NCBI GenBank assembly: GCA_900546145.1
Contig: URBN01000001.1
Span: forward strand, 5,144 to 69,143
Reading direction: 5' to 3'
Length of the DNA stretch: 64,000 bases
From: an uncultured Desulfovibrio sp.
Lineage (GTDB): Bacteria; Desulfobacterota; Desulfovibrionia; Desulfovibrionales; Desulfovibrionaceae
The notes beneath the pieces are model-generated. The model did not search any database, was not told the DNA's origin, and was given only the letters and a program-made list of their open reading frames with translations. A program made the position numbers and the translations under genes. Positions within the stretch are counted from its first letter, which is position 1; the number at the start of each line of letters is the position of its first letter. Below are positions 2,394-31,982 of this stretch, piece after piece.

Positions 2394-3116
2394 TCAGAAA
2401 TTGAGCTGCCGGCAGGCTTCGTCAATATACCGGCTAATCTGATTCAGACGATTTGTCTCTTCCTGTATGTGAGCAAAGTCCCAGGTAAAGCAGATGACGC
2501 AGCCGTTGGCCCGTATGGTGTTGAGCGGGCGGACGTCGGGGCCTGAAAGGCCTATGGCGTTGCTGGCCGTGGATCCCATGATAATAAGCATTTTGACGCC
2601 GAGTTCACGCAGGCCGGACCAGAAAATATCCGGGTGGGGCGTCAGGCCGGATTCCGGCTCTCCGGGAAGAGCGTAGGGCCAGAAGGTATGTGTGCCTGCG
2701 CGCCTGTGCAGGCTGTGGAGAAGCTGATTGAGGCAGTCCCTGCGTTCCGGGCTGGCGTGACCGGTGAGATCGAGGCCGAGCTCGGGATAGGTCCAGGCGA
2801 CGGGGCCTTTGCGCATGCGGCCAAGAAGAGCCCGCCAGTTTTCCGGCCACGCGTCAGTGGGGATGATGGGGAACCTTCTGCGGAGTTCGGGAACCCGGAC
2901 CTGCGGCGTAGGTCTCTGTGGGACGGGACGCTGGGGAAGGGGACGGCGTGTATCCCGGACCGGATACCGCTGCGGGGCGGGACGGGACGGACGGGGAGCG
3001 GGCACGGCCTCCGCCATCAGGGACAGGGGAGCAGGCACATCCTTATCAGAAAGGATGTACCTGATGCCGGCAGTCTCAAGAACCTGGGCTAACGGAGTTA
3101 CGCGTTCAAAAGACAT
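2394..3116 (-). CDS. hypothetical protein with Pro/Arg/Gln-rich low-complexity linker
   Basis: This 240-aa ORF overlaps the coaBC 3' end by 19 nt. Its central region is PAPRPSRPAPQRYPV...PQRPTPQ. The C-terminal domain (GEPESG...IIMGSTASNAIGL) weakly resembles the uracil-DNA glycosylase superfamily (speculative). Confidence 0.35.
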   Translation of the reverse strand: MSFERVTPLAQVLETAGIRYILSDKDVPAPLSLMAEAVPAPRPSRPAPQRYPVRDTRRPLPQRPVPQRPTPQVRVPELRRRFPIIPTDAWPENWRALLGRMRKGPVAWTYPELGLDLTGHASPERRDCLNQLLHSLHRRAGTHTFWPYALPGEPESGLTPHPDIFWSGLRELGVKMLIIMGSTASNAIGLSGPDVRPLNTIRANGCVICFTWDFAHIQEETNRLNQISRYIDEACRQLNF

Positions 3117-4351: not shown

Positions 4352-4917
4352 ATGTCACGCCCCTGAATGTGGTTTTCGTCCCGGAAGGGTTCTGAGGTGG
4401 ATGAGGGAACCGGCTCGCTCTGCGCGGAGTCTGTGCCGCCCGTGGCGGAAGAGGGCGTTCCCGTATGCTGACTCATGACCGGCAGGGTGACGGTGGCGCC
4501 GTCGGGAAGCTGCGTGCCCGCCGCGATCTGAACGAGAGTCTGCATGGGCGGTGTCTGAATGCTTACGTGCACGATGGCGAGGCGGCCCCCGTTTTCAAAA
4601 ATATAGAAGCCCCTGTTGCCGCTCGTCTGGCTGAGGCGCACCTTCCAGCCCCGCGCCTGAAGGCCGCTCGCGATGGTTCCTGCGCACACGGCCGGACCAG
4701 AGCTGCTGCGCAGGATTTCAACGCCGTCCTGTCCGGAAATACTGCTGTGGGAGGGGAAGTATTCCGTGCCCGCAGGAAGGGCAACACCCAGCAGGACGCT
4801 CGACGGTGTGGGCCTGCCGCCGGAGGCGGTCATGCCTCCGAAGCCTCCCATGCCGGAACAGCCGCTCAGGAAGAACAGCAGGGCAATTATTGGAAGCGTG
4901 ACAAGTGGGCGATGCAT
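4348..4917 (-). CDS. lipoprotein, unknown function
   Basis: The internal start MHRPLVTLPIIALLFFLSGC gives a signal peptide plus lipobox (LSGC). A GGAGGA ribosome-binding site lies upstream. The mature part is Gly/Ser/Thr-rich. The ORF track extends it to 5064. Confidence 0.5.
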   Translation of the reverse strand: MHRPLVTLPIIALLFFLSGCSGMGGFGGMTASGGRPTPSSVLLGVALPAGTEYFPSHSSISGQDGVEILRSSSGPAVCAGTIASGLQARGWKVRLSQTSGNRGFYIFENGGRLAIVHVSIQTPPMQTLVQIAAGTQLPDGATVTLPVMSQHTGTPSSATGGTDSAQSEPVPSSTSEPFRDENHIQGRDI

Positions 4918-5050
4918 ATTGTAGAGTCCTCCCCGTCCTGCGCGCCGCTCTGCCGCGGGACCGGGCCCGTTCAGCGGCTCTGAGACAATGAGAATACCTT
5001 CTCCTCCATGAAGAGGCAAGGTGGCCCCGGGAAGACCGGGAAAAGGAAAG

Positions 5051-6154
5051 ATGATGGCGGACAAGGAAGATTTTCTGCTTGAGAGTTACGATTATGAACT
5101 GCCCGAATCCCAGATCGCCCAGACGCCTCCGGAACACCGCGGCGATTCAAGGCTCATGGTCATCAACAGGAACGGGGATCTCGGTCTTGAGCATCATCAG
5201 TTTTCCGAACTCTGCGATCTTCTGCCCGAGGGAGCCCTCCTGGTTGCCAACAATTCACGCGTTCTGCCGGCCCGCCTCAGGGGCGTGCGTCCCGCTACGG
5301 GCGGCAGGGTGGAATTTCTTCTGCTTACGCCCCTTCCCGTTGTGCTGAAGGACGCGCAGGAGACCGGTGACGGCGGGCACACTGCCCGTGCGGCCGGACT
5401 CATGCGCTGCGGAGGTCATCTGCACGCAGGCGAGACTATTCCTTTCGGGAACGACATCAGCATTGTGCTCAGGGAAAAGGGCGATTTCGGCCGCTGGACC
5501 GTGGATCTTTTCTGGAAGGGCGATCTCGTGGGTGACTACGAGGCAGAGGGAAGCATTCCGCTTCCTCCCTATATCCGGCGTATGCCCGTGGCCGATGATT
5601 CGGACCGCTATCAGACCGTCTACGCGCGCGAGGACAAAATAGGATCCGTGGCCGCGCCCACGGCCGGTCTGCATTTCACCAACGAGCTCAGGCAGCGTCT
5701 TGCGGAGCGGGGGTTCGGCTGGAGCGAGGTGACCCTGTACGTGGGGTATGGCACGTTCAGCCCCGTGCGCAGTGAGGATATCCGCAGTCACTCCATGCAT
5801 CAGGAGCTCATCGAGATGCCCGCGGACACTGCCGCGCGTATCAGGGAGGCAAAGGCTGAGGGGCGTCCCGTTATCGCTGTTGGCACCACGTCTGTCCGCA
5901 CCATGGAGGGCTGCTGGGAAGCCTGCGGGGCTATACAGGAATACAGCGGCTTCACGGGCATTTTCCTTTATCCGGGAAAACCGCTCAACGTGGTGGACGG
6001 GCTCATCACCAATTTTCACCTGCCGAAGTCATCGCTGATTATGCTGGTTTCCGCCATGGCCGGAAGAAAGCGCATTCTTGAGGCCTACAGACAGGCTGTG
6101 GCTGCGGGGTACCGCTTCTTCTCCTACGGTGACGCCATGTTCATCAGGCCATAA
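5051..6154 (+). CDS. queA: S-adenosylmethionine:tRNA ribosyltransferase-isomerase
   Basis: MADKEDFLLESYDYELPESQIAQTPPEHRGDSRLMV... shows the QueA N-terminal signature, and the length matches. The start could be ATG 5051 or 5054 (the ORF track uses GTG 5021). Confidence 0.9.
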   Translation: MMADKEDFLLESYDYELPESQIAQTPPEHRGDSRLMVINRNGDLGLEHHQFSELCDLLPEGALLVANNSRVLPARLRGVRPATGGRVEFLLLTPLPVVLKDAQETGDGGHTARAAGLMRCGGHLHAGETIPFGNDISIVLREKGDFGRWTVDLFWKGDLVGDYEAEGSIPLPPYIRRMPVADDSDRYQTVYAREDKIGSVAAPTAGLHFTNELRQRLAERGFGWSEVTLYVGYGTFSPVRSEDIRSHSMHQELIEMPADTAARIREAKAEGRPVIAVGTTSVRTMEGCWEACGAIQEYSGFTGIFLYPGKPLNVVDGLITNFHLPKSSLIMLVSAMAGRKRILEAYRQAVAAGYRFFSYGDAMFIRP

Positions 6155-6191
6155 GGGCTGACTTCCTCCGGATGCGTCCCCGGAGCCCGGT

Positions 6192-7298
6192 TCACATCTT
6201 GAAAGAGAACCGGCGCATGGACACGTTGAGGACGATGCCGAGGAAGATAAAGTTCACGATGGTGGCCGATCCGCCGTAACTGATGAAGGGGAGAGGAATG
6301 CCAACCACGGGCATGATACCCACTACCATGCCGATATTGATGAAGATTTCCCAGAAAAAGTAGAAGAAGACTCCTGCGCAGAGCATGCAGCCGAACCGGT
6401 CTTTGGCCTGCATGACCGTTGAGAAGATGGAGAGCAGGAACAGGCTGAACAGGGTGATGAGGCAGACGCAGCCGACGAAGCCCCATTCCTCGCCGAAAAC
6501 GGCGACGGCGAAGTCGGAATGCCGTTCCGGCAGGAAACGCAGCTGGGACTGTGTTCCTTCTGTGAAACCCTTGCCCCACATCTGGCCCGAGCCGATTGCG
6601 ATGCGGGACTGCAGAATGTGATAGCCCGTTCCCAGGGGATCGGCGTCGGGGTTGAGGAAGGTCAGGATGCGCTGGCGCTGGTAGTCGTGCATGCCGACGT
6701 TCCACATGAGGAAGAGGATGCAGGGTGCCGCCAGGGCGCATACTTTAAAGATGATTTTCCGGATTCCGTGAAAGAGGATCATGCCGGCCAGGATGAGAAG
6801 GAGCATGAGAGCGGAGCCGAGGTCAGGCTGCTTGATAATGAAAGCCGCGGGCACAAGCCCCATGAGCACGATACTGCCGAACTCCTTCCAGCCGAGCGGC
6901 TCGCCGTTGCGGGAGAGGAGCCGCGCGCTCAGCAGAAAAACGGAGATTTTGGCGAGTTCGGATGGCTGCAGGCTCATGAACCCGAGGGAGATCCAGCGCT
7001 TGGCGCCGTAGACCGTGGTCCCGATGAGGGGAACCAGGGCGAGGAGCACAAGAGTGATGATATAGAAGGGCCAGGCCAGGCTCCGCAGCCTGTGGTAGTC
7101 GATGCTCATGGTGAGGAGCATGCAGCCGAGGCCGCACAGTCCCCAGATGAACTGGCGCTGATAGAAGTCCGACAGCGTGACTCCGGACCCTATGCGCGCG
7201 CCGCTCGCCGAGTACAGGTTGAGTTCGCCCACGCCGAACAGCAGGATGATGCAGACGACGAGGCCCCAGTTGATATAGCTGAAAAGTGGCTTATCCAT
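6192..7298 (-). CDS. rodA: rod shape-determining protein RodA (SEDS family)
   Basis: The 368-aa polytopic membrane protein belongs to the FtsW/RodA/SpoVE family and sits immediately downstream of PBP2. Confidence 0.85.
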   Translation of the reverse strand: MDKPLFSYINWGLVVCIILLFGVGELNLYSASGARIGSGVTLSDFYQRQFIWGLCGLGCMLLTMSIDYHRLRSLAWPFYIITLVLLALVPLIGTTVYGAKRWISLGFMSLQPSELAKISVFLLSARLLSRNGEPLGWKEFGSIVLMGLVPAAFIIKQPDLGSALMLLLILAGMILFHGIRKIIFKVCALAAPCILFLMWNVGMHDYQRQRILTFLNPDADPLGTGYHILQSRIAIGSGQMWGKGFTEGTQSQLRFLPERHSDFAVAVFGEEWGFVGCVCLITLFSLFLLSIFSTVMQAKDRFGCMLCAGVFFYFFWEIFINIGMVVGIMPVVGIPLPFISYGGSATIVNFIFLGIVLNVSMRRFSFKM

Positions 7299-7307
7299 AT
7301 ATGCCTG

Positions 7308-9287
7308 CTAGGGCAGCCAGTTCTGCTGCGCCTTAAGTTTTTTCTTCTGCATTTCGGGCGGAAGCGGCGGTCCGGGAAGCTCGCGCACAGGCGTGTCGCT
7401 TTTTGCCAGGGTGTAGTATTCGGGATTGGCGAAGAGATAATTGTACACCTTGCGGGCGATGGGGCCTGCGGCCTTGGAACCGCCGCCGCCGTGTTCGACC
7501 ATGACAATGACGACATAGGTCTTGTCGTTCTTGTGTCCCCAGGTAGCGATCCAGGCGTGGTCCCTCTCTTTCCAGGCGAGGTTTCTGTGCCCCTTGAGAC
7601 GTACGACCTGAGCCGTGCCGGTCTTGCCGCCCATGATGGCGTCGCCGCGGCCCACCACGCGGGCCGTGCCGCCGGAGGCCGTGCGGCGCATGCATTCAAC
7701 GATGTAGCGCAGGGTCTCGCGCGAGGCGGGAACGTGTCCCGTGACCGTTTTCGGATCCGTATCCACGAGCTGGGGCTTGAGCAGATCGCCGCCGTTCAGG
7801 AGGGCGCTCACATAGACGGCTATCTGCAGCGGCGTGGTCAGCACGTAGCCCTGCCCGATGGATGCGTTGAACGTGTCGCCGCGGGACCAGCCGCGTTTGA
7901 AGCGGCGGTGCTTCCAGGCGCGGGAGGGCACGAGGCCTGTCTTTTCATGGGGCAGGTCGATTCCCGTTCTGCGGCCAAAGCCGCACTGTTTCGCGAAAGC
8001 CTCTATTTTGTCGATGCCGAGCCTGTCGGCCATAATATAGAAATAGCTGTCGCAGGAGTTGTAGATGGCCTGCATCAGGTTCTGCGATCCGTGTCCGCTG
8101 TGGCGCCAGCAGTGAAAAATCTGCTTGCCGAGACGTATGCCGCCGGGACAGTAGACTGTGTCGGTAACGGGAATGCCGTTTTCCATGATGCATGCGGCCA
8201 TGACGAGCTTCCAGACGGAGCCCGGAGGGTAGACGCTCTGAATGGCTCGGTTCTGCAGGGGGAAATGCGGATCGTTTCTGAGGGTTTCCCAGTCGCGGCG
8301 GGAAATGCCTTCGGCGAAGAGGTTGTTGTCGTAGGCGGGTTCCGTAACCAGGGCCCTGAGCTTGCCCGTGTCAGGCTCCATGACCACGATGGATCCTACC
8401 TCAGTGCCGAGGGCATCCCAGCAGGCTTTCTGGATGTCCCTGTCCAGGGACAGCTTGAGTTCCTCGCCGCCCTGGGGTTCCTCGCGCAGGACCTGGCCGA
8501 GCATGCGGCCCGATGCGTCCACTTCGATGTCATAGAGGCCTTTGCGGCCGCGCAGACGTTTGTCCAGCGTGTATTCGATGCCTGACTTGCCCACGAGGTC
8601 GCCCATGGAGAGTTCCGGATTCTTCTCGAGTTCCGTCTCGTTGGCTTCGGCGACGTAGCCGAGGATGTGGGCGAAGAGATCCTTCTCGGGGTAGCTGCGC
8701 TTTGTGAGGATGACGATCTCGAGGCCGGGCCAGGCGTAGAGTTCGGACTCGATGCGGGCCACGAGCTGGAAGTCGAGGTCTGTCACGAGGAGCAGGGGCT
8801 CAAAGGATTTTACTTTGAAGCGGCTCTGCCTGTAGCGTTCCATGACCTGATCAAGAGGCACGCCTGTCCATTCGCTGACCTGGGCCAGGGTGGCGGGCAG
8901 ATCCCGGATATCATCGCGGATGAGGGACAGGCCGTAGGCTGTGCGGTTATCCGCCAGCACGCGGCCCTTGACGTCGAAGATGCGGCCCCGCGGCGCGGAG
9001 ATCTGTTCCTGGCGCCAGTGGTTTTCCTGAGCCTGGCGGGCGAAGTCCTCACCGAGATGCACCTGCAGAAACCAGAAGCGGGGCACGAAGACGAAAAAGA
9101 AGATCAGGATGAGGGCCTGGAGAAGGATGAGTCCGCCTCTCGGAGGCGTAAACCTGTCCGTGTTCTCCTTCCTGATCAGGATTTCGGGAGGCGTTTTATC
9201 CTCTCGCTTCCTGAATTTCCCCAGAAGACCGCGGCCGGCCGGCTGCCGTCCGGCGGCTTCTTCGTCATTGTTCCTGTTGTTGTTCAT
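7308..9287 (-). CDS. mrdA: penicillin-binding protein 2 (peptidoglycan D,D-transpeptidase)
   Basis: The 659-aa protein has an N-terminal TM helix, a PBP dimerisation domain and a transpeptidase domain. Its position is mreD-mrdA-rodA. Confidence 0.9.
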   Translation of the reverse strand: MNNNRNNDEEAAGRQPAGRGLLGKFRKREDKTPPEILIRKENTDRFTPPRGGLILLQALILIFFFVFVPRFWFLQVHLGEDFARQAQENHWRQEQISAPRGRIFDVKGRVLADNRTAYGLSLIRDDIRDLPATLAQVSEWTGVPLDQVMERYRQSRFKVKSFEPLLLVTDLDFQLVARIESELYAWPGLEIVILTKRSYPEKDLFAHILGYVAEANETELEKNPELSMGDLVGKSGIEYTLDKRLRGRKGLYDIEVDASGRMLGQVLREEPQGGEELKLSLDRDIQKACWDALGTEVGSIVVMEPDTGKLRALVTEPAYDNNLFAEGISRRDWETLRNDPHFPLQNRAIQSVYPPGSVWKLVMAACIMENGIPVTDTVYCPGGIRLGKQIFHCWRHSGHGSQNLMQAIYNSCDSYFYIMADRLGIDKIEAFAKQCGFGRRTGIDLPHEKTGLVPSRAWKHRRFKRGWSRGDTFNASIGQGYVLTTPLQIAVYVSALLNGGDLLKPQLVDTDPKTVTGHVPASRETLRYIVECMRRTASGGTARVVGRGDAIMGGKTGTAQVVRLKGHRNLAWKERDHAWIATWGHKNDKTYVVIVMVEHGGGGSKAAGPIARKVYNYLFANPEYYTLAKSDTPVRELPGPPLPPEMQKKKLKAQQNWLP

Positions 9288-9741
9288 GGCGTGCGCGCTG
9301 TCTGCAATACGAAATAACGGCCCAGGCTACGGGGATGTAGAGCGCCTGCAGCAGGCCTTCGTGCAGGGCCTCGACGGAATCAAAGGGGTAGCCCTGCAGC
9401 GTGGAGAAGAGCCAGTTCAGGCTGAGACGCGTGACGCCCAGTCCGAGCGACAGGACCGAGATGAAGAAAAAGGTGGAAGACTGATAGAGCTCCCCAAGCA
9501 GCCTGTAGAGCGCGAAGAACGCGGCCAGGAAAAGGAGGCTCGCACCAAAATGCTGCGTGCCCATGCCCTCCTGGATGAGCAGAATGAGCGGAAGCATGCA
9601 GACGAGGGTCTTGTATTCCCTGTTTTCCAGCAGGAGGAGGACGATGACGATGAGCGTGTCGATCCTCGGAATATACATTTCGAGAGCGATGGAAATGCAG
9701 GTGAGCAGAATCAGGCCCGCGAGGCGCTTGACGTTTTCCAT
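9265..9741 (-). CDS. mreD: rod shape-determining protein MreD
   Basis: The 158-aa protein has multiple TM helices and lies between mreC and mrdA. Confidence 0.7.
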   Translation of the reverse strand: MENVKRLAGLILLTCISIALEMYIPRIDTLIVIVLLLLENREYKTLVCMLPLILLIQEGMGTQHFGASLLFLAAFFALYRLLGELYQSSTFFFISVLSLGLGVTRLSLNWLFSTLQGYPFDSVEALHEGLLQALYIPVAWAVISYCRQRARHEQQQEQ

Positions 9742-9744
9742 GGC

Positions 9745-10695
9745 CTAAAAGCCTCTCTGGTGTCCCTGCGCTGACTGATCCCTGGACGGGGAGGCATCCT
9801 TCTGCTTCGGGAGGAGGGAACTCGGGAGCGGCGGGCCTACGAAGACGGGATCGGGCGTATCCACCATGGGCGGCTTCACGATACCCGTGGGCTCGAGCAG
9901 CATGACTTCTTCGATATGCTGCATGTCCACGAGGGGTTCGGCGTAGATGGTCATGAATTCGGTGTAGTTGGACGGCGCCACGGAAATGACCCTGGCCACG
10001 GGGATGCCCTTGGGGTACTTGCCGTCAAGACCGGAGGTGATGAGGATTTCGCCGGGTTTGGCTTTTGTGTCACGCTGCATGTAGCGTACGGCGAGGGGCT
10101 TGTTTGTGCCTTCGCCGGTGAGGATGCCGGCTGTACGGCTCTCCTGCGTGAAGATGGCGATGCGGCTGCCGGGGTTGGTGAGCAGGAGTGCCGTGGCCGT
10201 GTGCGGGGAAGCTCTGAGCACGCGGCCGATGAGTCCTTTGTGTGTGACGATGGGGGTGCCCGGCCTTGCTCCCGTGGCGTAGCCGCGGTTGATGGTAATG
10301 GAATCGAGCAGGGAGTTGGGGCCGAGGTGGCCGGCGAGCACGCGCGCACCCACAGGGGTCCAGGATTCGTCTATGGGCAGCTGCAGGAGTTCGCGCAGAC
10401 GCGCGAGTTCGGCCATGTCCTCTTTGTGGGCCAGGAGACGGGCCTCGAGGTCACGCACACGGGCCTCGAGCTGCGCGTTCTTTTCGTTCACGTCCACGAG
10501 GTACACGTAACGCTTCCAGACAGCGGTCACTCTGTCCTGCACGTAGCGGATGGGGGTGATGACACCGCCTGTAAGCTCGAGACCCACGTCCGTGGAAAAA
10601 TCGTCGAGCACATGCGTGTTCTTGTTCCACGTGTACATGGACAGAAAGAGGATGAGCAGCACGCCCATCAGGATGAGAAATCGCCGGAATGTCAA
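9745..10695 (-). CDS. mreC: rod shape-determining protein MreC
   Basis: It has an N-terminal TM segment, a coiled coil (LEARVRDLEARLLAHKEDMAELARLREL) and the MreC beta domain, with a Pro-rich tail. Confidence 0.85.
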   Translation of the reverse strand: MTFRRFLILMGVLLILFLSMYTWNKNTHVLDDFSTDVGLELTGGVITPIRYVQDRVTAVWKRYVYLVDVNEKNAQLEARVRDLEARLLAHKEDMAELARLRELLQLPIDESWTPVGARVLAGHLGPNSLLDSITINRGYATGARPGTPIVTHKGLIGRVLRASPHTATALLLTNPGSRIAIFTQESRTAGILTGEGTNKPLAVRYMQRDTKAKPGEILITSGLDGKYPKGIPVARVISVAPSNYTEFMTIYAEPLVDMQHIEEVMLLEPTGIVKPPMVDTPDPVFVGPPLPSSLLPKQKDASPSRDQSAQGHQRGF

Positions 10696-10824
10696 AGCTG
10701 CAGGCCCTGCGGGCGGTTAAGGGGAAGCGCCGCCCCGTCGTTCTCTATTTGAAAGGCGCCGCGCCAGAAAAGGAGGCACGGCGCCTTGGCAGATTCAAAG
10801 ACGCGGAGGACTGTCCGTCCCCGG

Positions 10825-11916
<1,092 letters not shown>

Positions 11917-12152
11917 TCAGCGGCTATTTTTTGCTGAAGTTTCTAGATCCTCTAAAAATCAGCGCAAGTCAAGGGGAAAAAAGGTCAGCACTCCCGCGGA
12001 GGAGAGGCCTCCGCGGCCTTTCCCGGAAGCACGGCGGAGCGCGGTCCGGAGCGCTTCCGGAAGGCCGTCCGGACAGTGCCCTGGGATCCCGTGTCTATTG
12101 CTAAGGAGGCGACAGTCTGTCATAATCAGCCGCCGGGAAAATGGGAGTAATC

Positions 12153-12944
12153 ATGGGGAAAAATCTGCTTTTGTTTGATGTCGGCAACACCACCACCAAG
12201 GTGGGGCTCGATGGCGGCGCCGGGATGCGGCAGTTCTCCTTCCGCACGGATTCCCGCCTCACGCCTGACGACATCGGCATGAAGCTCCTTTTCCTGCTCG
12301 ACAGGGCCGGAGTCTCCCTGGAGAGCGTCGAGGCTGCGGTGGTTTCCTCCGTGGTCCCCGGCGTTGACTACGAGCTCGTTTCGGCCGTCGAACACTACGT
12401 GGGCTGCCCTGTTTTCTTTGTTCCACGGGATATTCCCGTGCCTCTTGAGAACCGTTACCGCAATCCCCGCGAAGTGGGGGCTGACCGCCTGGTCGTGTCC
12501 TGCGCCGCGCGCATGCTTTTCCCTGACGACCCGTCCCTTATCGTTATCGACTCGGGGACGGCGCTCACTTTCGACTGTGTCTCCGGCAGAGCCTATCTCG
12601 GCGGGCTGATTTTCCCCGGTCCCGTGACCGCGCTCGACGCGCTGGCCGGCGCTGCGGCCAAGCTGCCGCACATCAGCCTCGAGACGGACGCTGCCGTTCC
12701 CGAACCCTGCGCGGACACGGCCACGAGCATACGGCATGGCATTGTCTTCGGCTTTGCAAGCCTTGTGGACGGCCTGACCGCCCGGCTGGCCGCCGGCCTT
12801 CCAGGGCCCGTCCGGGTCGTGGGTACGGGCGGCTTTCTGCAGATGCTCTCCGGCAAGGTGAGCTCCATTGACGTCATTCTGCCTGCGCTGCTCCTCGACG
12901 GACTCGCCATGCTGTACAGGCAGTATAAAATAGCTAACAATTAA
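12153..12944 (+). CDS. coaX: type III pantothenate kinase
   Basis: MGKNLLLFDVGNTTTKVGL... carries the CoaX/Bvg accessory factor family signature. A GGGAGTAA ribosome-binding site lies upstream. Confidence 0.85.
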   Translation: MGKNLLLFDVGNTTTKVGLDGGAGMRQFSFRTDSRLTPDDIGMKLLFLLDRAGVSLESVEAAVVSSVVPGVDYELVSAVEHYVGCPVFFVPRDIPVPLENRYRNPREVGADRLVVSCAARMLFPDDPSLIVIDSGTALTFDCVSGRAYLGGLIFPGPVTALDALAGAAAKLPHISLETDAAVPEPCADTATSIRHGIVFGFASLVDGLTARLAAGLPGPVRVVGTGGFLQMLSGKVSSIDVILPALLLDGLAMLYRQYKIANN

Positions 12945-15273: not shown

Positions 15274-16350
15274 ATGTATCGCAATGCCAAAAACGTTGGT
15301 TATGTGATGATTGGCAGCGGTGCCATCAATCAGCTCGGGGATATTCTCGCCCCCCGCAGAAAGGAAGGCACCCCCGCTGTCTGGTTCTTTGATCACTTCT
15401 TTGAACATAACGATCTGGCCGGACGCCTGCCTGTCGAATCCGGCGATATTGTCATTTACGTGGACACCACAGAGGAGCCCACCACCGACGGCGTGGACGC
15501 CTATACAAAGGACGTGAAGGCCCGGCTTGGCGGAAAACTCCCCTGCGCCATGCTCGCCTTCGGCGGCGGTTCCACCATGGATACCTGCAAATGCGTGGGC
15601 AACCTCCTGACCAACCCCGCCCGCGCCGAGGACTATCAGGGCTGGGAGCTCGTGAAGCACGCTGCTCCCTACAAGATCGGCTGCCCCACCATTTCCGGCA
15701 CGGGTTCCGAATCCTCGCGCACCGGCGTGCTCTGCAACCAGGCCAAGAACCTCAAGCTCGGTATGAACAGTGACTTCACCATGTTCGACCAGCTGGTCCT
15801 TGACCCTGATCTCTCCGGGACGGTTCCGAGAGACAAGTTCTTCTACACCGGCATCGACACGTATATGCACTGCTTCGAAAGCCTGACCGGCCACTACCGC
15901 AACACGGTTGTGGACGCCCTGGCTACGAAGGCCATTGAGCTTTCCCGCGAAATCTTCAATTCCGCGGACATGATGCTCCCCGAAAACAGGGAGAAGCTCA
16001 TGATTGCCTCCTATCTCGGCGGCATGGCTGCCGGCTTCGTGGGCTGCGTGCATCCTCTTTCCGCGGGCCTTTCCATGGTTCTCGACATCCATCACGGCTT
16101 GGCCAACCTGCTGGCGCTCTCCGTGCTCGATGACATTTATCCCAAGCAGCACGCCGAAGTCATGGCAATGATGGAAAAGCAGGGCATCACTCTTCCGAAG
16201 GGCGTGTGCCGTAATCTGACCGACGAGCAGTTCACCAGGCTTTATGAGGGCAGCATTGTCCATGAAAAGCCCCTGACCAACGCTCTCGGCCCCAATTACA
16301 GGGACATCCTGACAAAGGAAAACGTCATCGCCAGGTTCAAGAAGCTTTAA
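15274..16350 (+). CDS. iron-containing alcohol dehydrogenase / DHQ-synthase-like fold oxidoreductase
   Basis: The 358-aa protein has the GGGSTMD nucleotide-binding motif and metal-ligand His residues typical of the Fe-ADH superfamily. It heads a sugar-modification cassette. Confidence 0.6.
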   Translation: MYRNAKNVGYVMIGSGAINQLGDILAPRRKEGTPAVWFFDHFFEHNDLAGRLPVESGDIVIYVDTTEEPTTDGVDAYTKDVKARLGGKLPCAMLAFGGGSTMDTCKCVGNLLTNPARAEDYQGWELVKHAAPYKIGCPTISGTGSESSRTGVLCNQAKNLKLGMNSDFTMFDQLVLDPDLSGTVPRDKFFYTGIDTYMHCFESLTGHYRNTVVDALATKAIELSREIFNSADMMLPENREKLMIASYLGGMAAGFVGCVHPLSAGLSMVLDIHHGLANLLALSVLDDIYPKQHAEVMAMMEKQGITLPKGVCRNLTDEQFTRLYEGSIVHEKPLTNALGPNYRDILTKENVIARFKKL

Positions 16351-16494
16351 GCCGGGCGTCCGTCCGGGGATCCCCGGAAGCCTTTTTCTGCTCCACTTCC
16401 GCCCCCTCCGGGTGCGGGGGTGGAGCAGTCATGTATGGAGTGCCGGCCTTCCGTTCCCGCGGGGAGCGGCGGACCGCACCAGGAGATACTTTTC

Positions 16495-17682
16495 ATGAAA
16501 CTCAGAATTAATTTCAGCGGCCGTTCCATCCGTTACACGGAAGATGAAATCGCCACTGTTGTCGAAGCCATGCGCAACGCCGAACCCCTCACCCAGGGCC
16601 ATTACCTCCAGGAGTTTGAGTCCGCGTTCGCGCGCTATCAGGGCGTGGAAGAAGGCAGCTGCTTCGCTGTCTGCAACGCTACGGCGGCCCTTGAGATGTC
16701 TGCCCAGCTCTGCCGCTTCAAAGATGGCGATGAGCTGGTCATCCCGTCGCATACGTTCACCGCTTCCGCGTATCCGTACGTCAAGAAGGGCGCGAAGATT
16801 AAGTGGTGCGACGTCGATCTGCATACGCACGTGGCCACGCCCGAGACCATAGCCGCTGCCATGACGCCCCGCACCAAGGCCGTCGTGGTCGTGCATCTCT
16901 ACGGCTACGTGGCGGACATGCCTGCCATCGCGAAGCTCTGCCATGACCGCGGCGTCATCCTCATTGAGGACACCGCCCAGGCCATCGGTTCCGAGGTGGA
17001 CGGGAAGAAGGCCGGCTCGTTCGGCGACATGAGCATCTTCTCCTTCCATTCTCACAAGAATCTGACCACGCTCGGCGAAGGCGGCATGCTCTATCTGAAG
17101 GATCCGAAGCTCAGGGCCATCATCCCCATGTTGCGCCACAACGGGCACTGCGCCTACGATTTTGAACGCCCGGATTACTGGAAGCCGGCCATGGGCAATG
17201 TGGACATGCCCATGCTGGACGGCGAATGGCTGCAGCCCAACAACTACAGCCTTGGCGAGGTCGAGTGCGCGCTTGGCACCAAGCTGCTCGAACGTATCGA
17301 TTCCATCAATGACTTCAAGCGCGCGAGGGCCATGCGCTTCATCGACGGGCTGAAGGATTTCCCCGAGCTTGAGTTCCTGCGCGAGAACACGCGCCGCCAT
17401 AACTACCATCTGCTGGTGGCCCGTATGACGAGCGGCGTGGAGAAGCGTGACGCTTTCATGCGCAGAATGTACGAGGACAAGGGCATCAAGTGCGTCGTGC
17501 AGTACATTCCTCTGAACCGCTATGACTATTACAGGCGTCAGGGACTTGGCGAGTCCAACTGTCCCAACGGGGATCTCTTCTACGATACTATGGTGTCTTT
17601 CCCCTTCCAGGCCTGGATGAGCGACGAGGATTTCGAATATATGCTCGTTTCGGCGCGTGAAGTATTGGCCAGTCTGCGCTAG
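16495..17682 (+). CDS. DegT/DnrJ/EryC1/StrS-family PLP-dependent sugar aminotransferase
   Basis: The protein MKLRINFSGRSIRYTEDEIATVVEAMRNAEPLTQGHYLQEFESAFARY... has the conserved Lys in SFHSHKNL. It is SpsC/PseC/FlmB-like. The start was moved to an internal Met with an AGGAGA ribosome-binding site. Confidence 0.8.
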   Translation: MKLRINFSGRSIRYTEDEIATVVEAMRNAEPLTQGHYLQEFESAFARYQGVEEGSCFAVCNATAALEMSAQLCRFKDGDELVIPSHTFTASAYPYVKKGAKIKWCDVDLHTHVATPETIAAAMTPRTKAVVVVHLYGYVADMPAIAKLCHDRGVILIEDTAQAIGSEVDGKKAGSFGDMSIFSFHSHKNLTTLGEGGMLYLKDPKLRAIIPMLRHNGHCAYDFERPDYWKPAMGNVDMPMLDGEWLQPNNYSLGEVECALGTKLLERIDSINDFKRARAMRFIDGLKDFPELEFLRENTRRHNYHLLVARMTSGVEKRDAFMRRMYEDKGIKCVVQYIPLNRYDYYRRQGLGESNCPNGDLFYDTMVSFPFQAWMSDEDFEYMLVSAREVLASLR

Positions 17683-17742
17683 ACTGCAGGGACGGCGCCC
17701 CGTGGCTGCGGGCGCCGTCCGCCACATTTCGGGAGGACCTGC

Positions 17743-19410
17743 ATGGAAAAACGCTGCATCATTATCCCTGCCATCAAGAAAAACGCCGTCATCCCTGATC
17801 AGCTGGTCAAGAAGCTCGCGGGTGTGACGCTGATCGAAAGGGCCATTGAGACAGCCCGCGCCGTGGCGCAGGGCAAGGATATCTATGTCCTCACAGACAG
17901 CCAGGAAATATCCCTTATCTGCGAGCGTCTCGGCGTGCAGTTCAGGCGCAACCGTGAGCTGAAGTTCGAGACGCTCAACATCGTCGCTGAAATGCGCGAC
18001 ATTCTGAGTGAGCTCGCCCCTCTCTACGAGCACTGCATCATCCTGCGCGCCTCCTGTCCCCTGATCACCTGGGTGGACGTGGAAGACGCCTGGCACAAGT
18101 ACACTGATGCCGGCATGGACAGCCTGGTCACGGTGAAGAGCGTGCATCAGCGCATCTGGAGCGTGCAGGGGAAGAATCTTGCCCAGCTTCTTGATGACGA
18201 TGAGGGTGAGCGCGAGGTCGTGGTTGAGAGCCGCGCCATTATTATTCTCCGCTCGAAGCCGCTCATGCGCTGGCTTTCAGAGGGGCACTCCGCCAAGATG
18301 CAGAACGTGATGCCCTATTTTCTCAATGACAGGGCCATCGAGATCCAGTCCTACCAGGACTGGTGGATCTGCGAACACCTGCTCCAGCGCAGGCACGTGG
18401 TCTTTGTGGTTGCGGGCTGGCCCGCCATTGGCATGGGGCATATCTACCGCGCGCTCATGCTGGCTCACGAGATCACGGATCACAAAATTACCTTCGTGTG
18501 CACGCGCGAGTCCGAGCTAGCTGTGGAAAGCATAGCCAGAAAGGATTACCGCAGCGTGCGCCAGGGCGAGGAGGAGCTGTGGCAGACCGTGCTCGGCCTG
18601 CGTCCCGACCTCGTGGTGAACGACATCCTGAACACGGACGCCGACTATATGCAGCATCTCAAGTCCGCAGGCGTCCGCTGCGTCAATTTCGAGGACGAGG
18701 GCGAGGGCGCCGGCTACGCCGATCTCGTTATCAACGCCCTCTACCCGGAGGAAGAAGCCAGTGAGCGCAGGCTCTGCGGGCCGGATTACTTCTGCCTCAG
18801 GGACGAATTCGTGGAGGCGAAGCGCAATGAGTTCCGCCCCGAGCTGAAGACGCTCCTCATCACGTTTGGCGGCACGGATCAGCGCAACTGCACGAAGCGC
18901 GTGCTCGATATCGTTGAGCCGTACTGCCGTGAAAAGGGCATAGCTATCCGCCTGGTGGTCGGTCCGGGCTACGCCCATCGTTTTGACATGGAGCGCTACG
19001 TAAAAGAGCTCGGCAATCCCCTTGTGTCTTTCACCTGGGCCACCAACGTTATGAGCCGCATGATGGAAGGAGCGGATCTGTGCATCTGCTCCGCGGGACG
19101 GACAGTCTACGAGCTGGCGCACATGCGTATCCCTTCCCTCGTCCTTGCCACGCACGAGCGTGAGGCCAGGCATACTTTCGCACGCGCCGCCAACGGCTTC
19201 CTGTTCGTGGGCGTCATGGACAGGGTGTCTGACGAAAAAATACGCCGCTGTTTCATGGCCATGACGGACAGCCGGCTGCGCGAGCGCATGTACCGCCGTA
19301 TGAGCCGTCTGGATTTTTCGGGTAACAAAAAGCATGTTGTCAGCCTGATGCTGGCCCTGCTTAAAGGCGATGGCACTGGAAGCCACACCAATAATGGAGA
19401 AAACGTATGA
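17743..19410 (+). CDS. fusion protein: NeuA-like cytidylyltransferase domain (degenerate P-loop) + PseG/SpsG-like UDP-sugar hydrolase (GT28 C-terminal fold)
   Basis: The N-terminal ~220 aa align to the CMP-NeuAc synthetase family (IIIPAIKKNAVIP, GVTLIERAIETA, DSLVTVKSV), but the GGSK loop is replaced by IKKN. The C-terminal ~330 aa are PseG/SpsG-like (VVFVVAGWPAIGMGHIYRAL...). Confidence 0.6.
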   Translation: MEKRCIIIPAIKKNAVIPDQLVKKLAGVTLIERAIETARAVAQGKDIYVLTDSQEISLICERLGVQFRRNRELKFETLNIVAEMRDILSELAPLYEHCIILRASCPLITWVDVEDAWHKYTDAGMDSLVTVKSVHQRIWSVQGKNLAQLLDDDEGEREVVVESRAIIILRSKPLMRWLSEGHSAKMQNVMPYFLNDRAIEIQSYQDWWICEHLLQRRHVVFVVAGWPAIGMGHIYRALMLAHEITDHKITFVCTRESELAVESIARKDYRSVRQGEEELWQTVLGLRPDLVVNDILNTDADYMQHLKSAGVRCVNFEDEGEGAGYADLVINALYPEEEASERRLCGPDYFCLRDEFVEAKRNEFRPELKTLLITFGGTDQRNCTKRVLDIVEPYCREKGIAIRLVVGPGYAHRFDMERYVKELGNPLVSFTWATNVMSRMMEGADLCICSAGRTVYELAHMRIPSLVLATHEREARHTFARAANGFLFVGVMDRVSDEKIRRCFMAMTDSRLRERMYRRMSRLDFSGNKKHVVSLMLALLKGDGTGSHTNNGENV

Positions 19411-20102
19411 GGACAGTAGCCATTATTCAGGCCCGCCTCGGGTCCACGCGTCTGCCGATGAAGTCACTGCTGTGCCTTCGCGGCCACGCCATCATCGACT
19501 GGGTGGTTGACAGGGTCATGACGGCCTCGCTTCTGGACGAGGTTGTGGTAGCCTGTCCTGACACGGCTCGGGATGCCGTTCTGGCGGATCACCTTGAGAG
19601 ACGGCACGTCCATGTCGTACCCGGTTCGGAGCAGGATGTTCTTTCCCGCTTCGTCCTGGCCGCTGAGGCGAGCCGCGCCGACCGTGTCGTCCGCGTCTGC
19701 GCGGACAACCCGCTCATCTGGGGTGAGGCCATAGACAGGCTTATCCGCCAGTTTGACAGGGGAGGCTGCGATTACTGCTACAATCATATTCCGCGCGCCA
19801 ACAGATGGCCCGATGGCCTGGGCGCTGAGATTGTCAGCCGCGGCCTTCTGGACAGCATTGCCGAAAGGGCCGTGGAGCCTTCGGAGCGGGAGCACTGCCT
19901 GAACTACATCTGGGATCATCAGCAGGATTTCACCATACGTACTTTTGATCCCACGGAGGAATGGCTCTGCCGTCCCGAGGTGAAGCTGGATATTGATACG
20001 GCAGATGATTTCTGCAGACTGGCCCTCATGCCGATTGACCCCGGCATGGACGCCAGACGCATCATAGACGTCGTCGACGCCGGGAAGAAAAAGTCCGCCT
20101 GA
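19407..20102 (+). CDS. SpsF/PseF/FlmC-type cytidylyltransferase
   Basis: VAIIQARLGSTRLPMKSL... carries an intact acylneuraminate-cytidylyltransferase-family motif. The gene overlaps the preceding one by 4 nt. Confidence 0.65.
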   Translation: MRTVAIIQARLGSTRLPMKSLLCLRGHAIIDWVVDRVMTASLLDEVVVACPDTARDAVLADHLERRHVHVVPGSEQDVLSRFVLAAEASRADRVVRVCADNPLIWGEAIDRLIRQFDRGGCDYCYNHIPRANRWPDGLGAEIVSRGLLDSIAERAVEPSEREHCLNYIWDHQQDFTIRTFDPTEEWLCRPEVKLDIDTADDFCRLALMPIDPGMDARRIIDVVDAGKKKSA

Positions 20103-20152: not shown

Positions 20153-20683
20153 ATGCCTGAAGAGCAGGAAAAATTTCAGAAAAACGTGGATGATGTCCTT
20201 GAAGGCGTGATGTTTGAAAACTGGCTGCGCTTCTATTTCCTAAAGGAAACAGAGGAAAAGGACGAGAAGGGCGAACCCAAACTGGTCATGAACATTCCCG
20301 AAAAGGGCATGGCCAAAATCAAGGAACTGTATCCCAGGCTGTATTCCCTGGCCGAAGACGTGAATGGCATGCCCGCGACCTTCGACGTGTCCCGCAACGC
20401 CGTGTGCAATTACGTGCTCACCGAACTGGTGAAGCCCGGAGACGGCGGCGCCAGCGCCATGTCCTCTGTCATCGACTCGCGCGCCTTCCAGGTGAAGAAT
20501 CAGCTCTTCAATATCTGGGTCCAGGGCTATGAGGAAAAGCTTGATCAGCAGTTCCTGGAATTCGGACAGTGGCAGCTCATATTCAGTGAATGGCTCAAGT
20601 CCGATTCCGGCAAGGAAATCAGGGCCAAGCTTGAGATGTCCGCCCCCACCGGCTGCAAGACCGGAGAGAAACCGGCCGACTAG
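20153..20683 (+). CDS. hypothetical protein (176 aa, acidic, no recognisable domain)
   Basis: The ORF is clean, with a ribosome-binding site (AAGGGAGAGG) and a following terminator. I saw no family signature. Confidence 0.4.
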   Translation: MPEEQEKFQKNVDDVLEGVMFENWLRFYFLKETEEKDEKGEPKLVMNIPEKGMAKIKELYPRLYSLAEDVNGMPATFDVSRNAVCNYVLTELVKPGDGGASAMSSVIDSRAFQVKNQLFNIWVQGYEEKLDQQFLEFGQWQLIFSEWLKSDSGKEIRAKLEMSAPTGCKTGEKPAD

Positions 20684-30692: not shown

Positions 30693-31970
30693 CTACATTT
30701 CGGGCGGAAGCTCATCGAGCTGCTTCTGCGAAAATACCGGGCCATCGAGGCAGACGTATTTGCCGCCGATGCCGCAGCGGCCGCAGATGCCGATACCGCA
30801 CTTCATTCTCTTTTCAAGGGAGGTGAAGACGTTTTCGTGCGAGAAGCCAAGTTCATCGAGAGCCTGCAGGGTGAACTTGATCATGATGGGCGGTCCGACG
30901 AGAACAGCCACGGTATTGTCCGGGCTGGGTTTCAGCTCGCGCAGCACGTTGGGGATGAGTCCCACATTGTGCGTCCAGCCTTCAGCTTCCCGGTCGATGG
31001 TAAGCGTGCAGTCCAGATCCGGATTATTCATCCAGCCTTCCAGCTCGTAGCTGTAAGCCAGATCCTGGGGGGACTTGCCGCCATACAGGAGGCTGATCTT
31101 GCCGTAGTCTTCCTTATGTTCGAGCAGGTGGAGCATGACAGTGCGGATAGGCGCCATGCCGATGCCGCCGCCAATGAAGAACACGTTCTTGCCCTTCCAG
31201 TCCTTGAAAGGCCACGGACGTCCGAGAGGAGCCCTGACGCCGACCTTGTCGCCCTTGCAGAGCTCATGGACAGCGGTGGTCACTTCGCCGGCCTGCATGA
31301 CGGAGAACTGGATGTAGTCCTTCATGGAAGGCGGGTTGTTGATGACGAAGGTGGATTCGCCCACACCGAAGACAGAGAGCTGACCGACCTGCCCGGGTTC
31401 GAAGGTGAAGTTCTTCATTTCCTCGGGATCATCGAGGACAACGCGAATCGTCTTGATGTTGTGCGTTTCGCGGATGACATCGACGACAGTGGCAGCCATG
31501 GGTTTGTATGGATTGCCCTTAATCATCGGGCGGGGAGCAACGGGCGTCAGCTTGCTGCCGTCCGGATTAGGCTTGAGAACAGTCTGTGTTGTCACGGTTT
31601 TCTCCGCCTCTTTTTTACTTTCAGGGGATGTTGCAGCGGCCTCGCGGGCGGGCTCTTCAGCCTTTGGCGCCTCGGCAGGGATCTCAGCCTCGGAGGCGGG
31701 AGCGGCCTCCTTCGCAGCCTCGGCCTCTTCCTTCTCAGGCTGGGCTTCGGCTTTGGCAGCCTCGGCGGGAGCCTTGGCTTCTTCCTTCACGGCAGGAGCT
31801 TCAGCTTTGACAGCTTCGGCGGGAGCCTTGGCTTCTTCCTTCACGGCAGGAGCTTCAGCTTTGACAGCCTCGGCAGGAGCGGCCGTCAGAGTCTTTTTGC
31901 TTCTGCGCGTGGTGTTCTTTTTGGCTGAGGCCGTCTTTTTATTTTTTCCGGATGTTTTCTTTGTAGCCAT
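30693..31970 (-). CDS. flxA: FlxA: FAD/NAD(P)-binding ferredoxin-reductase-like subunit with C-terminal Fe-S cluster and a 150-aa Lys/Ala/Glu-rich repetitive N-terminal extension
   Basis: The C-terminal 275 aa have an AsrB/HydG/PyrK-like fold (GGGIGMAPI, with Cys motif CGIGICGRCGIGG...C). The N-terminus is AKAPAEAVKAEAPAVKEE repeats. The gene is translationally coupled to flxB (10-nt gap). Confidence 0.7.
   Translation of the reverse strand: MATKKTSGKNKKTASAKKNTTRRSKKTLTAAPAEAVKAEAPAVKEEAKAPAEAVKAEAPAVKEEAKAPAEAAKAEAQPEKEEAEAAKEAAPASEAEIPAEAPKAEEPAREAAATSPESKKEAEKTVTTQTVLKPNPDGSKLTPVAPRPMIKGNPYKPMAATVVDVIRETHNIKTIRVVLDDPEEMKNFTFEPGQVGQLSVFGVGESTFVINNPPSMKDYIQFSVMQAGEVTTAVHELCKGDKVGVRAPLGRPWPFKDWKGKNVFFIGGGIGMAPIRTVMLHLLEHKEDYGKISLLYGGKSPQDLAYSYELEGWMNNPDLDCTLTIDREAEGWTHNVGLIPNVLRELKPSPDNTVAVLVGPPIMIKFTLQALDELGFSHENVFTSLEKRMKCGIGICGRCGIGGKYVCLDGPVFSQKQLDELPPEM
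31757..31880. repeat. 54-bp tandem repeat (about 2.3 copies) inside the flxA 5' region
   Basis: The unit CAGCCTCGGCGGGAGCCTTGGCTTCTTCCTTCACGGCAGGAGCTTCAGCTTTGA is repeated with one mismatch. It encodes the 18-aa peptide repeats. Confidence 0.7.
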
Positions 31971-31982
31971 TATGAACCCTCA

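Follow-up and report, generated by a model that had tools for sequence, protein, structure and literature searches.

A stretch of 64,000 nucleotides from an uncultured Desulfovibrio sp. (contig URBN01000001.1), analysed as a whole and called the window below, carries a cassette of four co-directional genes that appears to serve the synthesis of an activated sugar. A preliminary description, made from the sequence alone, had reported four such genes with an iron-containing alcohol dehydrogenase-family protein (Fe-ADH), a DegT-type aminotransferase, a fusion of a cytidylyltransferase-like domain (CT1) with a PseG-like domain, and a further cytidylyltransferase (CT2). The four open reading frames (ORFs), at 15274–16350, 16420–17682, 17743–19410 and 19407–20102 on the plus strand, were confirmed by their coordinates and by their Pfam and NCBIfam domains. 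The features of the cassette are as follows:

15274..16350, plus strand: KdnB-family iron/NAD-type alcohol oxidoreductase (Fe-ADH), 358 aa; Pfam Fe-ADH and ADH_Fe_C; full-length match to 5k8c
16363..16429, plus strand: two stable hairpins in the Fe-ADH/DegT intergenic region; terminator-like scan and fold z-score
16495..17682, plus strand: DegT-family pyridoxal phosphate (PLP) aminotransferase, 395 aa; Pfam DegT_DnrJ_EryC1, 284 bits; ORF open from GTG 16420
17743..18387, plus strand: CT1, CMP-ulosonic-acid-synthetase-like domain (about residues 1–215 of the 555-aa fusion); Pfam CTP_transf_3, 29 bits
18388..19410, plus strand: PseG-like GT-B domain (about residues 216–555 of the fusion); TIGR03590, 127 bits; GxGH motif; Foldseek
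19407..20102, plus strand: CT2, SpsF-type cytidylyltransferase, 231 aa; Pfam CTP_transf_3, 83 bits

ATG 16495, rather than GTG 16420, is the most likely start of the DegT gene; it is preceded by AGGAGA and agrees with public gene calls (395 aa). With this start the gap between Fe-ADH and DegT is 144 nt, so that the short gaps first described hold for the distance from folD to Fe-ADH (25 nt), for that from DegT to the fusion (60 nt) and for the junction of fusion and CT2 (4-nt overlap), but not for the gap within the Fe-ADH/DegT pair. The genes that had been reported missing in cis are indeed absent: Pfam scans of the main ORFs and tblastn found no NeuB, 4,6-dehydratase (PseB) or N-acetyltransferase gene in the window, and tblastn with the NeuB, NeuC and PseB-like proteins of the modules described below gave zero matches in it. 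The family searches proposed as a check recovered the Fe-ADH, DegT, CTP_transf_3 and PseG-like assignments, the last of them at a TIGR03590 score below cutoff.

Among solved structures, the Fe-ADH matches best the 3-deoxy-D-manno-octulosonate (Kdo) 8-oxidase KdnB (5k8c; E = 9.8e-89, 302 bits, residues 2–357, 43% identity), and the next solved Fe-ADH lies about 220 bits below this match. Both proteins share GGGSTMD and conserved Asp/His positions (YTGxDxxxH; H...HH), which we take to be the NAD and metal sites. The KdnB family is small, comprising 88 clusters at E ≤ 1e-30 in an exhaustive search of 1.84 billion representatives. Judged by its sequence, the Fe-ADH of the cassette is a full-length member of this family, in a clade apart from Shewanella KdnB: in a bootstrapped neighbour-joining tree the Shewanella-type KdnB clade was supported by 97% and the Desulfovibrio clade by 100%, and the two were joined in 0 of 300 replicates. 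Phosphonate, CDP-alcohol and aminocyclitol pathways, suggested by an Fe-ADH next to an aminotransferase and a cytidylyltransferase, were considered and rejected, as KdnB is by far the best solved match and no more than 67 bits are reached on the phosphonate Fe-ADH model.

The DegT protein gives only 101 bits with KdnA (5k8b), which ranks about 29th among its matches; its nearest solved relatives are TlmJ and ArnB, with QdtB close by. It carries an SFHSHK motif at residue 183, presumably the PLP-lysine motif. PseC is its best NCBIfam match, at 231.9 bits on TIGR03588, below the cutoff of 423.5. The member of the Shewanella-type clade that was examined (locus L086) is organised differently, as a bare DegT and Fe-ADH pair among housekeeping genes, and its DegT is a KdnA ortholog with 574 bits to 5k8b.

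Six further KdnB-family members, on unrelated metagenomic or genomic contigs (L087–L092), are found with a DegT gene in one co-directional run with NeuB and a cytidylyltransferase (CT). These loci define a module in which Fe-ADH adjoins DegT in five of the six cases:

L087, L088 and L090: Fe-ADH, DegT, small GT2, NeuB, CT; in L087 two further genes lie between NeuB and the cytidylyltransferase
L089: the gene set of L087, L088 and L090, with DegT after the cytidylyltransferase; a 356-aa protein of unknown family follows Fe-ADH
L091: Fe-ADH, DegT, PseG-like, NeuB, unknown, CT
L092: Fe-ADH, DegT, CT, NeuB, NeuC

The cytidylyltransferase is of the CT2 type in L087–L091 and of the NeuA type in L092, and the NeuC of L092 is a true one (380 bits against an equivalog cutoff of 236). 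The module NeuB proteins score 316–329 bits on NeuB_NnaB (cutoff 399.65) and about 235 on PseI, below cutoff in both cases. The Fe-ADH and DegT of the window are 49% and 51.5% identical to the L087 pair. With L091, the window DegT gives 450 bits and the PseG-like part of the fusion 206 bits to the standalone PseG-like protein, over profile positions 212–534; CT2 gives 97–148 bits with the cytidylyltransferases of L087–L091 and leaves the NeuA-type enzyme of L092 unmatched. By these matches, the Desulfovibrio cassette proteins are counterparts of the L087–L091 module members. The preliminary description had noted that an Fe-ADH-like enzyme is not canonical for these pathways; the Fe-ADH is, however, no generic outlier, since it belongs to the KdnB family and recurs with DegT and a CT2-type cytidylyltransferase beside NeuB in other phyla.

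The position beside NeuB is shared by a small GT2, a PseG-like protein or NeuC, one of which is a known hydrolysing epimerase, and we therefore infer that it holds the enzyme that frees a sugar from its nucleotide for NeuB. The cassette likewise contains a KdnB-family Fe-ADH with DegT, a candidate nucleoside diphosphate (NDP)-sugar hydrolase and an SpsF-type cytidylyltransferase. It differs from the module in that synthase and transferase lie at a second locus, that hydrolase and a degenerate synthetase-like domain form one fusion protein, and that its surroundings are housekeeping genes. Directly upstream of the L092 module (2099–6651) lie genes for a B12-radical SAM protein, a MaoC dehydratase, an FkbH-like protein and a hexapeptide acyltransferase, which are candidates for N-acylation of the new amine.

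Apparently, the KdnB family contains one small clade of true Kdo 8-oxidases, while most of its members lie in NeuB modules. Public annotation names the Desulfovibrio orthologs either ‘Kdo 8-oxidase’ (JGI) or ‘iron-containing alcohol dehydrogenase’. In view of this distribution, the automatic label ‘Kdo 8-oxidase’ probably names the wrong substrate in Desulfovibrio, Leptospira and others.

A genome scan with the fusion protein, using one genome per species, yielded 80 Desulfovibrionaceae loci, 62 of them with enough sequence on both sides. Conservation of the neighbourhood had been suggested as a check, and it is pronounced: the order Fe-ADH, DegT, CT1::PseG-like and CT2 is kept in 51 of the 62 informative species loci at 55–80% identity with varying flanks, which argues for a selected module rather than a chance neighbourhood. 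Species bearing the cassette include D. desulfuricans, D. piger and Bilophila. Where enough upstream sequence was present, Fe-ADH lies next to DegT (63 of 66 Desulfovibrionaceae loci). Two loci (L047 and L070) keep DegT without an upstream Fe-ADH, and no substitute oxidoreductase was found there; in L068 the fusion and CT2 genes are divergent from a run of NeuB, LIC12162-like and Sel1 genes (5317–12330), with no Fe-ADH or DegT within 10 kb. These three layouts indicate that the Fe-ADH/DegT tailoring pair is separable from the core genes. The fusion is retained even in the 1.4-Mb endosymbiont Candidatus D. trichonymphae, and an identical fusion protein is present in many gut metagenome assemblies. 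The window itself agrees at 98% with the uncultured Desulfovibrio RUG514.

Several variants of the locus were seen in passing. In a deep Desulfovibrionaceae lineage (L084, 7633–16115), CT2 is replaced after the fusion by an ABC transporter (ATPase, fused permease and binding protein); the same locus encodes a protein of 988 aa, YidC-like at its N-terminus and weakly matching sulfatases, followed by a TagF-like CDP-glycerol glycerophosphotransferase homolog. A D. falkowii-like scaffold (L095) has a DUF805 gene between folD and Fe-ADH (5239–5886) and an 80-aa ORF between fusion and CT2 (10488–10730). In some species the cassette genes stand much further apart, with intergenic distances of up to about 1.2 kb. 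Desulfovibrio-type cassettes also occur on contigs labelled Odoribacter splanchnicus (L010) and Bulleidia sp. (L042), both with coaX and folD upstream at 41–79% identity, and a protein of this type (P0442) is labelled Atopobiaceae; all three are probably mis-binned contigs of metagenome-assembled genomes.

As in the window, tblastn found no NeuB in 78 of the 80 Desulfovibrionaceae cassette loci. The other two, from deep lineages of the family, carry a module-type NeuB gene nearby: in L068 it is on the strand opposite to the fusion gene, about 0.5 kb upstream of it, and in L075 it lies about 5 kb downstream of CT2. In both loci the gene after NeuB encodes a relative of the LIC12162 family (about 575 aa; E = 1e-27), and a Sel1-repeat protein comes next. 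The gut species D. falkowii and D. legallii have orthologs of this type of NeuB (71–77% identity), as do Nitratidesulfovibrio and many uncultured Desulfovibrio. On a D. falkowii-like scaffold of 520 kb, about 390 kb separate the NeuB–LIC12162–Sel1 operon from the cassette, and the LIC12162-family transferase of the operon reaches 395 bits on TIGR04331 (cutoff 225); D. legallii carries this operon too. The congener NeuB scores 316 bits on NeuB_NnaB against 232.5 on PseI (PseI cutoff 340.25), both below cutoff, and no PseB- or PseH-type gene is found at the NeuB loci of the D. falkowii-like scaffold and D. legallii. A pathway split across loci, one of the two options raised at the outset, is thus found in these congeners, and the genome from which the window derives presumably has such a NeuB locus as well.

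The LIC12162 family owes its NCBI name to a Leptospira gene and carries the tag ‘o_ant’; no solved relative of the LIC12162-family protein was found by sequence. Glycosylation of flagellin or S-layer, named earlier as an example of use, finds no support, as nothing points to it, the partner transferase is tagged ‘o_ant’ and the cassette is present in Bilophila and D. piger. In D. legallii (L096, 1–4016) the NeuB–LIC12162–Sel1 operon has flagellar genes (flgI, one for a rod-binding protein, and flgN) at a distance of about 2 kb, and genes for an EamA transporter and a Ham1-like protein lie in between. The D. falkowii-like scaffold retains the EamA and Ham1-like neighbours of the operon and has no flagellar genes nearby.

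The AlphaFold model of the fusion protein (pLDDT 84) consists of two domains, which were compared with solved structures by Foldseek. In this predicted model the N-terminal domain resembles CMP-Kdn and CMP-Neu5Ac synthetases (9t4z, 6ifd and 1eyr, with TM scores of about 0.74), and the C-terminal domain resembles PseG (3hbm, TM 0.74), MurG-type transferases being equally close. An extra C-terminal domain, for example an acetyltransferase, was rejected, because the model has only two domains and profile positions 212–534 are spanned by the PseG-like protein of L091. On the PseG model TIGR03590 the fusion scores 127 bits (cutoff 153.55); its IGMGHIYR aligns with IGFGHIKR of Campylobacter jejuni PseG, which we take to hold the catalytic His, and GxGH is invariant among the orthologs. 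Public annotations name the protein ‘SpsG/CMP-NeuAc synthetase’ (JGI) or, elsewhere, ‘glycosyltransferase’.

In CT1, IPAIKKNAVIPDQLV stands in place of PAR.GS.R.P.K, with Arg replaced by Ile and Lys by Gln. This variant is invariant among all orthologs examined, from Desulfovibrio to Bilophila, and CT1 is under strong purifying selection. CT2, in contrast, and every standalone cytidylyltransferase of the modules have the canonical PAR.GS.R.P.K; CT2 carries the canonical QARLGSTRLPMK together with CADNPL and LDIDTADD motifs. Its best PDB match is 6oew (E = 1.7e-17), presumably a Leptospira cytidylyltransferase, and it gives weak KdsB-subfamily matches. On the PseF model TIGR03584 (cutoff 205.7), fusion and CT2 reach 34.8 and 23.3 bits. 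Hence the two cytidylyltransferase homologs reported earlier are both present and are not equivalent. As CT1 lacks the canonical Arg and Lys and its variant motif is invariant, we propose CT2 as the working CMP-sugar synthetase of the pathway, whereas CT1 is probably a conserved, non-catalytic nucleotide- or CMP-sugar-binding domain with a regulatory or scaffolding role rather than a second synthetase. One can speculate that it serves as a feedback sensor; animal GNE is inhibited by CMP-Neu5Ac.

We regard it as reasonably probable that a CMP-activated sugar of the nonulosonic (sialic-acid-like) kind, with an additional amino group, is made by a pathway divided between two loci, of which the cassette is the cis half; the idea of a variant CMP-activated sugar, already voiced in the preliminary description, was in our judgement right. 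In the proposed route, the PseG-like domain would hydrolyse a nucleotide-hexose(amine) to the free sugar, which a NeuB-family synthase encoded in trans would join with phosphoenolpyruvate to give a 3-deoxy-2-ulosonic acid. The KdnB-family Fe-ADH would then oxidise a side-chain hydroxyl, most likely that of the terminal CH2OH, to a carbonyl, and DegT would transaminate this carbonyl to an amine, in a chemistry like that of KdnB and KdnA in converting Kdo to 8-amino-Kdo (Kdo8N). CT2 would activate the product with CTP, and the LIC12162-family transferase encoded beside NeuB would attach the sugar to a surface glycan. We infer every catalytic step, the order of steps, the aminated carbon, the starting sugar and the acceptor from homology and gene association. 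The aminated position is the weakest point: the analogy with KdnB and the NeuC-containing L092 favour the terminal carbon, whereas the relatives of DegT favour a nucleotide-linked ring ketone.

Several points weigh against this pathway. No cassette protein reaches the equivalog cutoff of any characterised pathway in NCBIfam. DegT enzymes usually act on nucleotide-linked keto-sugars, and the closest solved ones here are TlmJ and ArnB, so that by analogy amination could take place on an NDP-hexose rather than on the free ulosonic acid. A PseG-type hydrolase is known for a 6-deoxy sugar, and with such a substrate there would be no terminal CH2OH available for oxidation. A hydrolase role of the small GT2 proteins is suggested by gene position alone. 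KdnB is named an oxidase, yet the host is an anaerobe. CT2 is lacking downstream in 6 loci and Fe-ADH upstream in 3. The evidence for the split layout comes only from congeners, with cassette proteins at about 69% identity, and the 64-kb window contains no NeuB.

The hairpins 3′ of the Fe-ADH gene are a further such point, as they may uncouple its transcription from that of DegT, and Fe-ADH may instead be co-transcribed with folD. In the first, at 16363–16378, a T-run comes after a GC stem of 6 bp; the stem of the second is about 18 bp long, and the fold of 16345–16500 has a z-score of −3.2. The number of terminator-like matches in the region (9, with 7.3 expected from shuffling) is not above expectation in total. 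For the hairpins, the candidates are a terminator, an attenuator and a REP-like element. Independent transcription of the Fe-ADH gene had been named as a finding that would speak against a cassette; the hairpins lend it weak support, and the adjacency of Fe-ADH and DegT is nonetheless strongly conserved. A riboswitch or other known RNA in the 144-nt gap was rejected, Rfam giving no match there or elsewhere in the window, in which no tRNAs were found either.

The best-characterised counterpart of the Fe-ADH/DegT pair is KdnB/KdnA of Shewanella oneidensis (5k8c and 5k8b). According to a review of the Kdo8N work, KdnB and KdnA turn free Kdo into Kdo8N before its incorporation, and loss of the kdn genes leads to polymyxin and bile-salt sensitivity in Shewanella. 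Both systems place a KdnB-family Fe-ADH, alignable over its full length and with the putative metal-ligand Asp/His kept, adjacent to a DegT-family aminotransferase, and in both the predicted logic leads from alcohol to carbonyl to amine on a 3-deoxy-2-ulosonic acid. Unlike the Shewanella pair, the Desulfovibrio pair combines a 43% identical Fe-ADH of a separate, well-supported clade with an aminotransferase that is not of the KdnA type (101 against 574 bits); it is not standalone but NeuB-linked and set with a PseG-like hydrolase and two cytidylyltransferase-like domains, and its host is an anaerobe.

The resemblance to Pse and Sps systems that gave the cassette its first name stands, although no protein reaches the PseC, PseG or PseF equivalog cutoffs. 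Like the PseB/C/H/G/I/F pathway for pseudaminic acid (Pse) of Campylobacter and Helicobacter, the system has a DegT protein, a PseG-fold domain with GxGH, a CMP-synthetase-fold protein and, in congeners, a NeuB-family synthase. It differs from that pathway in that the PseC, PseG, PseF and PseI models are all below cutoff, that neither locus has a PseB dehydratase or PseH acetyltransferase, and that an Fe-ADH is present; moreover, Pse is 9-deoxy and would leave no primary alcohol for a KdnB-like step. The Bacillus subtilis legionaminic acid (Leg) genes, presumably SpsC, SpsD, SpsE, SpsF, SpsG and SpsM, offer a second comparison if we take SpsC to be a DegT protein, SpsG to have the PseG fold, SpsF to be CT2-like and SpsE to be NeuB. 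On this assumption the cassette has the SpsC-like, SpsG-like and SpsF-like trio, but is without SpsM- and SpsD-type genes, has its SpsE (NeuB) at another locus and contains an extra Fe-ADH and CT-like domain.

Similarity to the NeuC/NeuB/NeuA system is seen in the module NeuB proteins, which score best on NeuB_NnaB (316–329 bits), in the bona fide NeuC of L092 and in the fold of CT1, which is that of CMP-Neu5Ac and CMP-Kdn synthetases; NeuB is, however, under the 399.65 cutoff, a PseG-like protein stands in Desulfovibrio in the stead of NeuC, and the oxidising and transaminating pair is added. With the LIC12162 loci of Leptospira-type O-antigen regions (TIGR04331/PF27859) the system shares the LIC12162-family protein, found with the module in L087 and L090 and with NeuB in Desulfovibrio, and also the best solved relative of CT2, 6oew, which we presume to be from Leptospira. 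Unlike those loci, the Desulfovibrio genes are distributed over two loci among housekeeping genes instead of an O-antigen island, and a Sel1-repeat protein follows the transferase. The cassette does not pass as a Pse cluster and departs from the Kdo8N pair on two counts, and we therefore consider it neither an ordinary Pse/Leg cluster nor a Kdo8N pair.

Four other explanations were weighed. Amination might come first: the Fe-ADH would oxidise a ring hydroxyl (e.g. at C4) of a nucleotide-hexosamine and DegT would aminate it, the two replacing the 4,6-dehydratase, after which PseG-like hydrolysis and NeuB condensation would give a 5,7-diamino nonulosonic acid keeping its 9-OH. The nearest solved relatives of DegT (TlmJ, ArnB and QdtB) use NDP-4-keto sugars, its best NCBIfam match is PseC, and another source of the keto group is needed as no dehydratase is present; the order Fe-ADH, DegT, hydrolase, NeuB and CT in L087, L088, L090 and L091 would also mirror the order of such reactions. 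This explanation nevertheless seems unlikely to us. We know of no Fe-ADH that acts on a nucleotide sugar, and the NeuC in the module of L092 is a true one, an enzyme that takes plain UDP-GlcNAc. KdnB, which alone in the family has been characterised, acts on a primary alcohol of a free ulosonic acid. Kdo8N itself is a product that we judge quite unlikely, with Fe-ADH and DegT converting free Kdo to 8-amino-Kdo for the inner core of lipopolysaccharide (LPS), CT2 acting as CMP-Kdo8N synthetase and the fusion as an accessory. Kdo is present in any Gram-negative cell, and the full-length match to KdnB at 43% identity, the JGI label of the orthologs and the weak KdsB-subfamily matches of CT2 all agree with such a role. 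The sensitivity to bile salts and polymyxin on Kdo8N loss, described for Shewanella in the same review, would suit a gut organism, but Kdo8N formation as outlined there requires neither a nucleotide-sugar hydrolase nor an extra cytidylyltransferase. Moreover, the Desulfovibrio clade grouped with Shewanella KdnB in none of the 300 bootstraps while the Shewanella-type clade had 97% support, the DegT of the true pair in L086 is orthologous to KdnA (574 bits to 5k8b) where the Desulfovibrio DegT reaches 101 bits, the closest relatives of Fe-ADH, DegT and CT2 are all in NeuB modules, and NeuB lies beside the cassette in L068 and L075. No report of Kdo8N in the Desulfovibrio LPS core was found in the literature searched.

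Two further explanations remain. The fusion could be an enzyme that both activates and transfers, CT1 making a CMP-sugar and the GT-B domain transferring it, with CT2 serving a second sugar. We hold this to be very unlikely: the GT-B domain is as close to MurG-type transferases as to PseG, some public annotations read ‘glycosyltransferase’ and CT1 is under strong purifying selection, but CT1 is without the canonical Arg and Lys found in every standalone module cytidylyltransferase, the GxGH aligned with the catalytic-His motif of PseG is invariant, a standalone PseG-like homolog occupies the exact slot of NeuC in L092, and a dedicated LIC12162-family transferase accompanies NeuB. Hardly credible in our view is an ordinary Pse/Leg pathway for flagellin, with pseB, pseH and pseI elsewhere and the Fe-ADH gene an unrelated neighbour co-transcribed with folD. 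In NCBIfam the names ranking first or nearly so are PseC, PseG and PseF, a terminator-like hairpin lies between Fe-ADH and DegT, and the NeuB locus of D. legallii is about 2 kb from flgI. All Pse models are nonetheless below cutoff, neither locus is accompanied by a PseB- or PseH-type gene, and the partner NeuB scores 316 bits on NeuB against 232 on PseI (both sub-cutoff); Fe-ADH stays by DegT in the 6 unrelated module loci and in 63 of 66 Desulfovibrionaceae loci, and the cassette is present in Bilophila and D. piger, which we take to be non-motile.

The two-locus pathway for an amino-nonulosonic acid has precedents in other amino ulosonic acids, namely 8-amino-pentadeoxynonulosonic acid in the O-antigen of Flexibacter maritimus and Kdo8N. 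Searches of the literature on Desulfovibrio and Leptospira nonulosonic acids, on triamino nonulosonic acids and on Tenacibaculum found no paper describing the system. To our knowledge, no biosynthesis of natural 8- or 9-amino nonulosonic acids has been described, and none was found in the literature searched. The parts are relatives of known enzymes, and the sugar itself is without prior description. As a tentative extension, in which we place clearly less confidence than in the pathway as such, gut Desulfovibrionaceae (Desulfovibrio and Bilophila) might make and display an undescribed amino-nonulosonic acid, either a 9-amino-9-deoxy sialic-acid-like sugar or an 8-amino one as in the Flexibacter O-antigen, via an oxygen-independent KdnB-type dehydrogenase/transaminase step. 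The same module in Leptospira-type O-antigen loci and in other phyla might make related sugars, and the fused pseudo-cytidylyltransferase might be a CMP-sugar sensor feeding back on the first committed (hydrolase) step, as CMP-Neu5Ac does on animal GNE. Desulfovibrio and Bilophila are prominent gut pathobionts with poorly known surface glycans. If the proposal is true, a positively charged sialic-acid-like sugar could affect how they resist bile and cationic peptides (an effect that Kdo8N has in Shewanella), how they are recognised by the immune system and how phages adsorb, and the cassette would be a concrete candidate route to natural 8- or 9-amino nonulosonic acids.

The position of the cassette between folD and a helicase, already recognised in the preliminary description, was confirmed, with coaX-eno-folD upstream and a 176-aa ORF, the uvrD/pcrA helicase gene and thiL downstream. 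By Pfam, the remaining main ORFs of the window are core genes only: coaBC, queA, rodA, PBP2, mreBCD, haem genes, an Flx/Hdr-like cluster, aprBA-qmoABC, and PBP1C with alpha-2-macroglobulin. The Flx/Hdr-like electron-transfer cluster (30693–37976, minus strand) and the sulfate-reduction core aprBA-qmoABC (42982–51131, plus strand) both lie within 25 kb of the cassette, which indicates a core-chromosome setting and not an island.

The 176-aa acidic ORF just past CT2 (20153–20683) belongs to no Pfam or NCBIfam family; it is kept (30–61% identity) in the closest Desulfovibrio clade only, and the loci of D. desulfuricans, D. piger and Bilophila lack it. An ORF of 581 aa (40599–42344, minus strand), flanked by an aminotransferase gene and aprB, has no Pfam match. 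At 55657–63655 on the minus strand, the genes for a PBP1C-like transglycosylase/transpeptidase and for a bacterial alpha-2-macroglobulin of 1880 aa overlap at the start of the latter, a pairing of the known pbpC-yfhM type.

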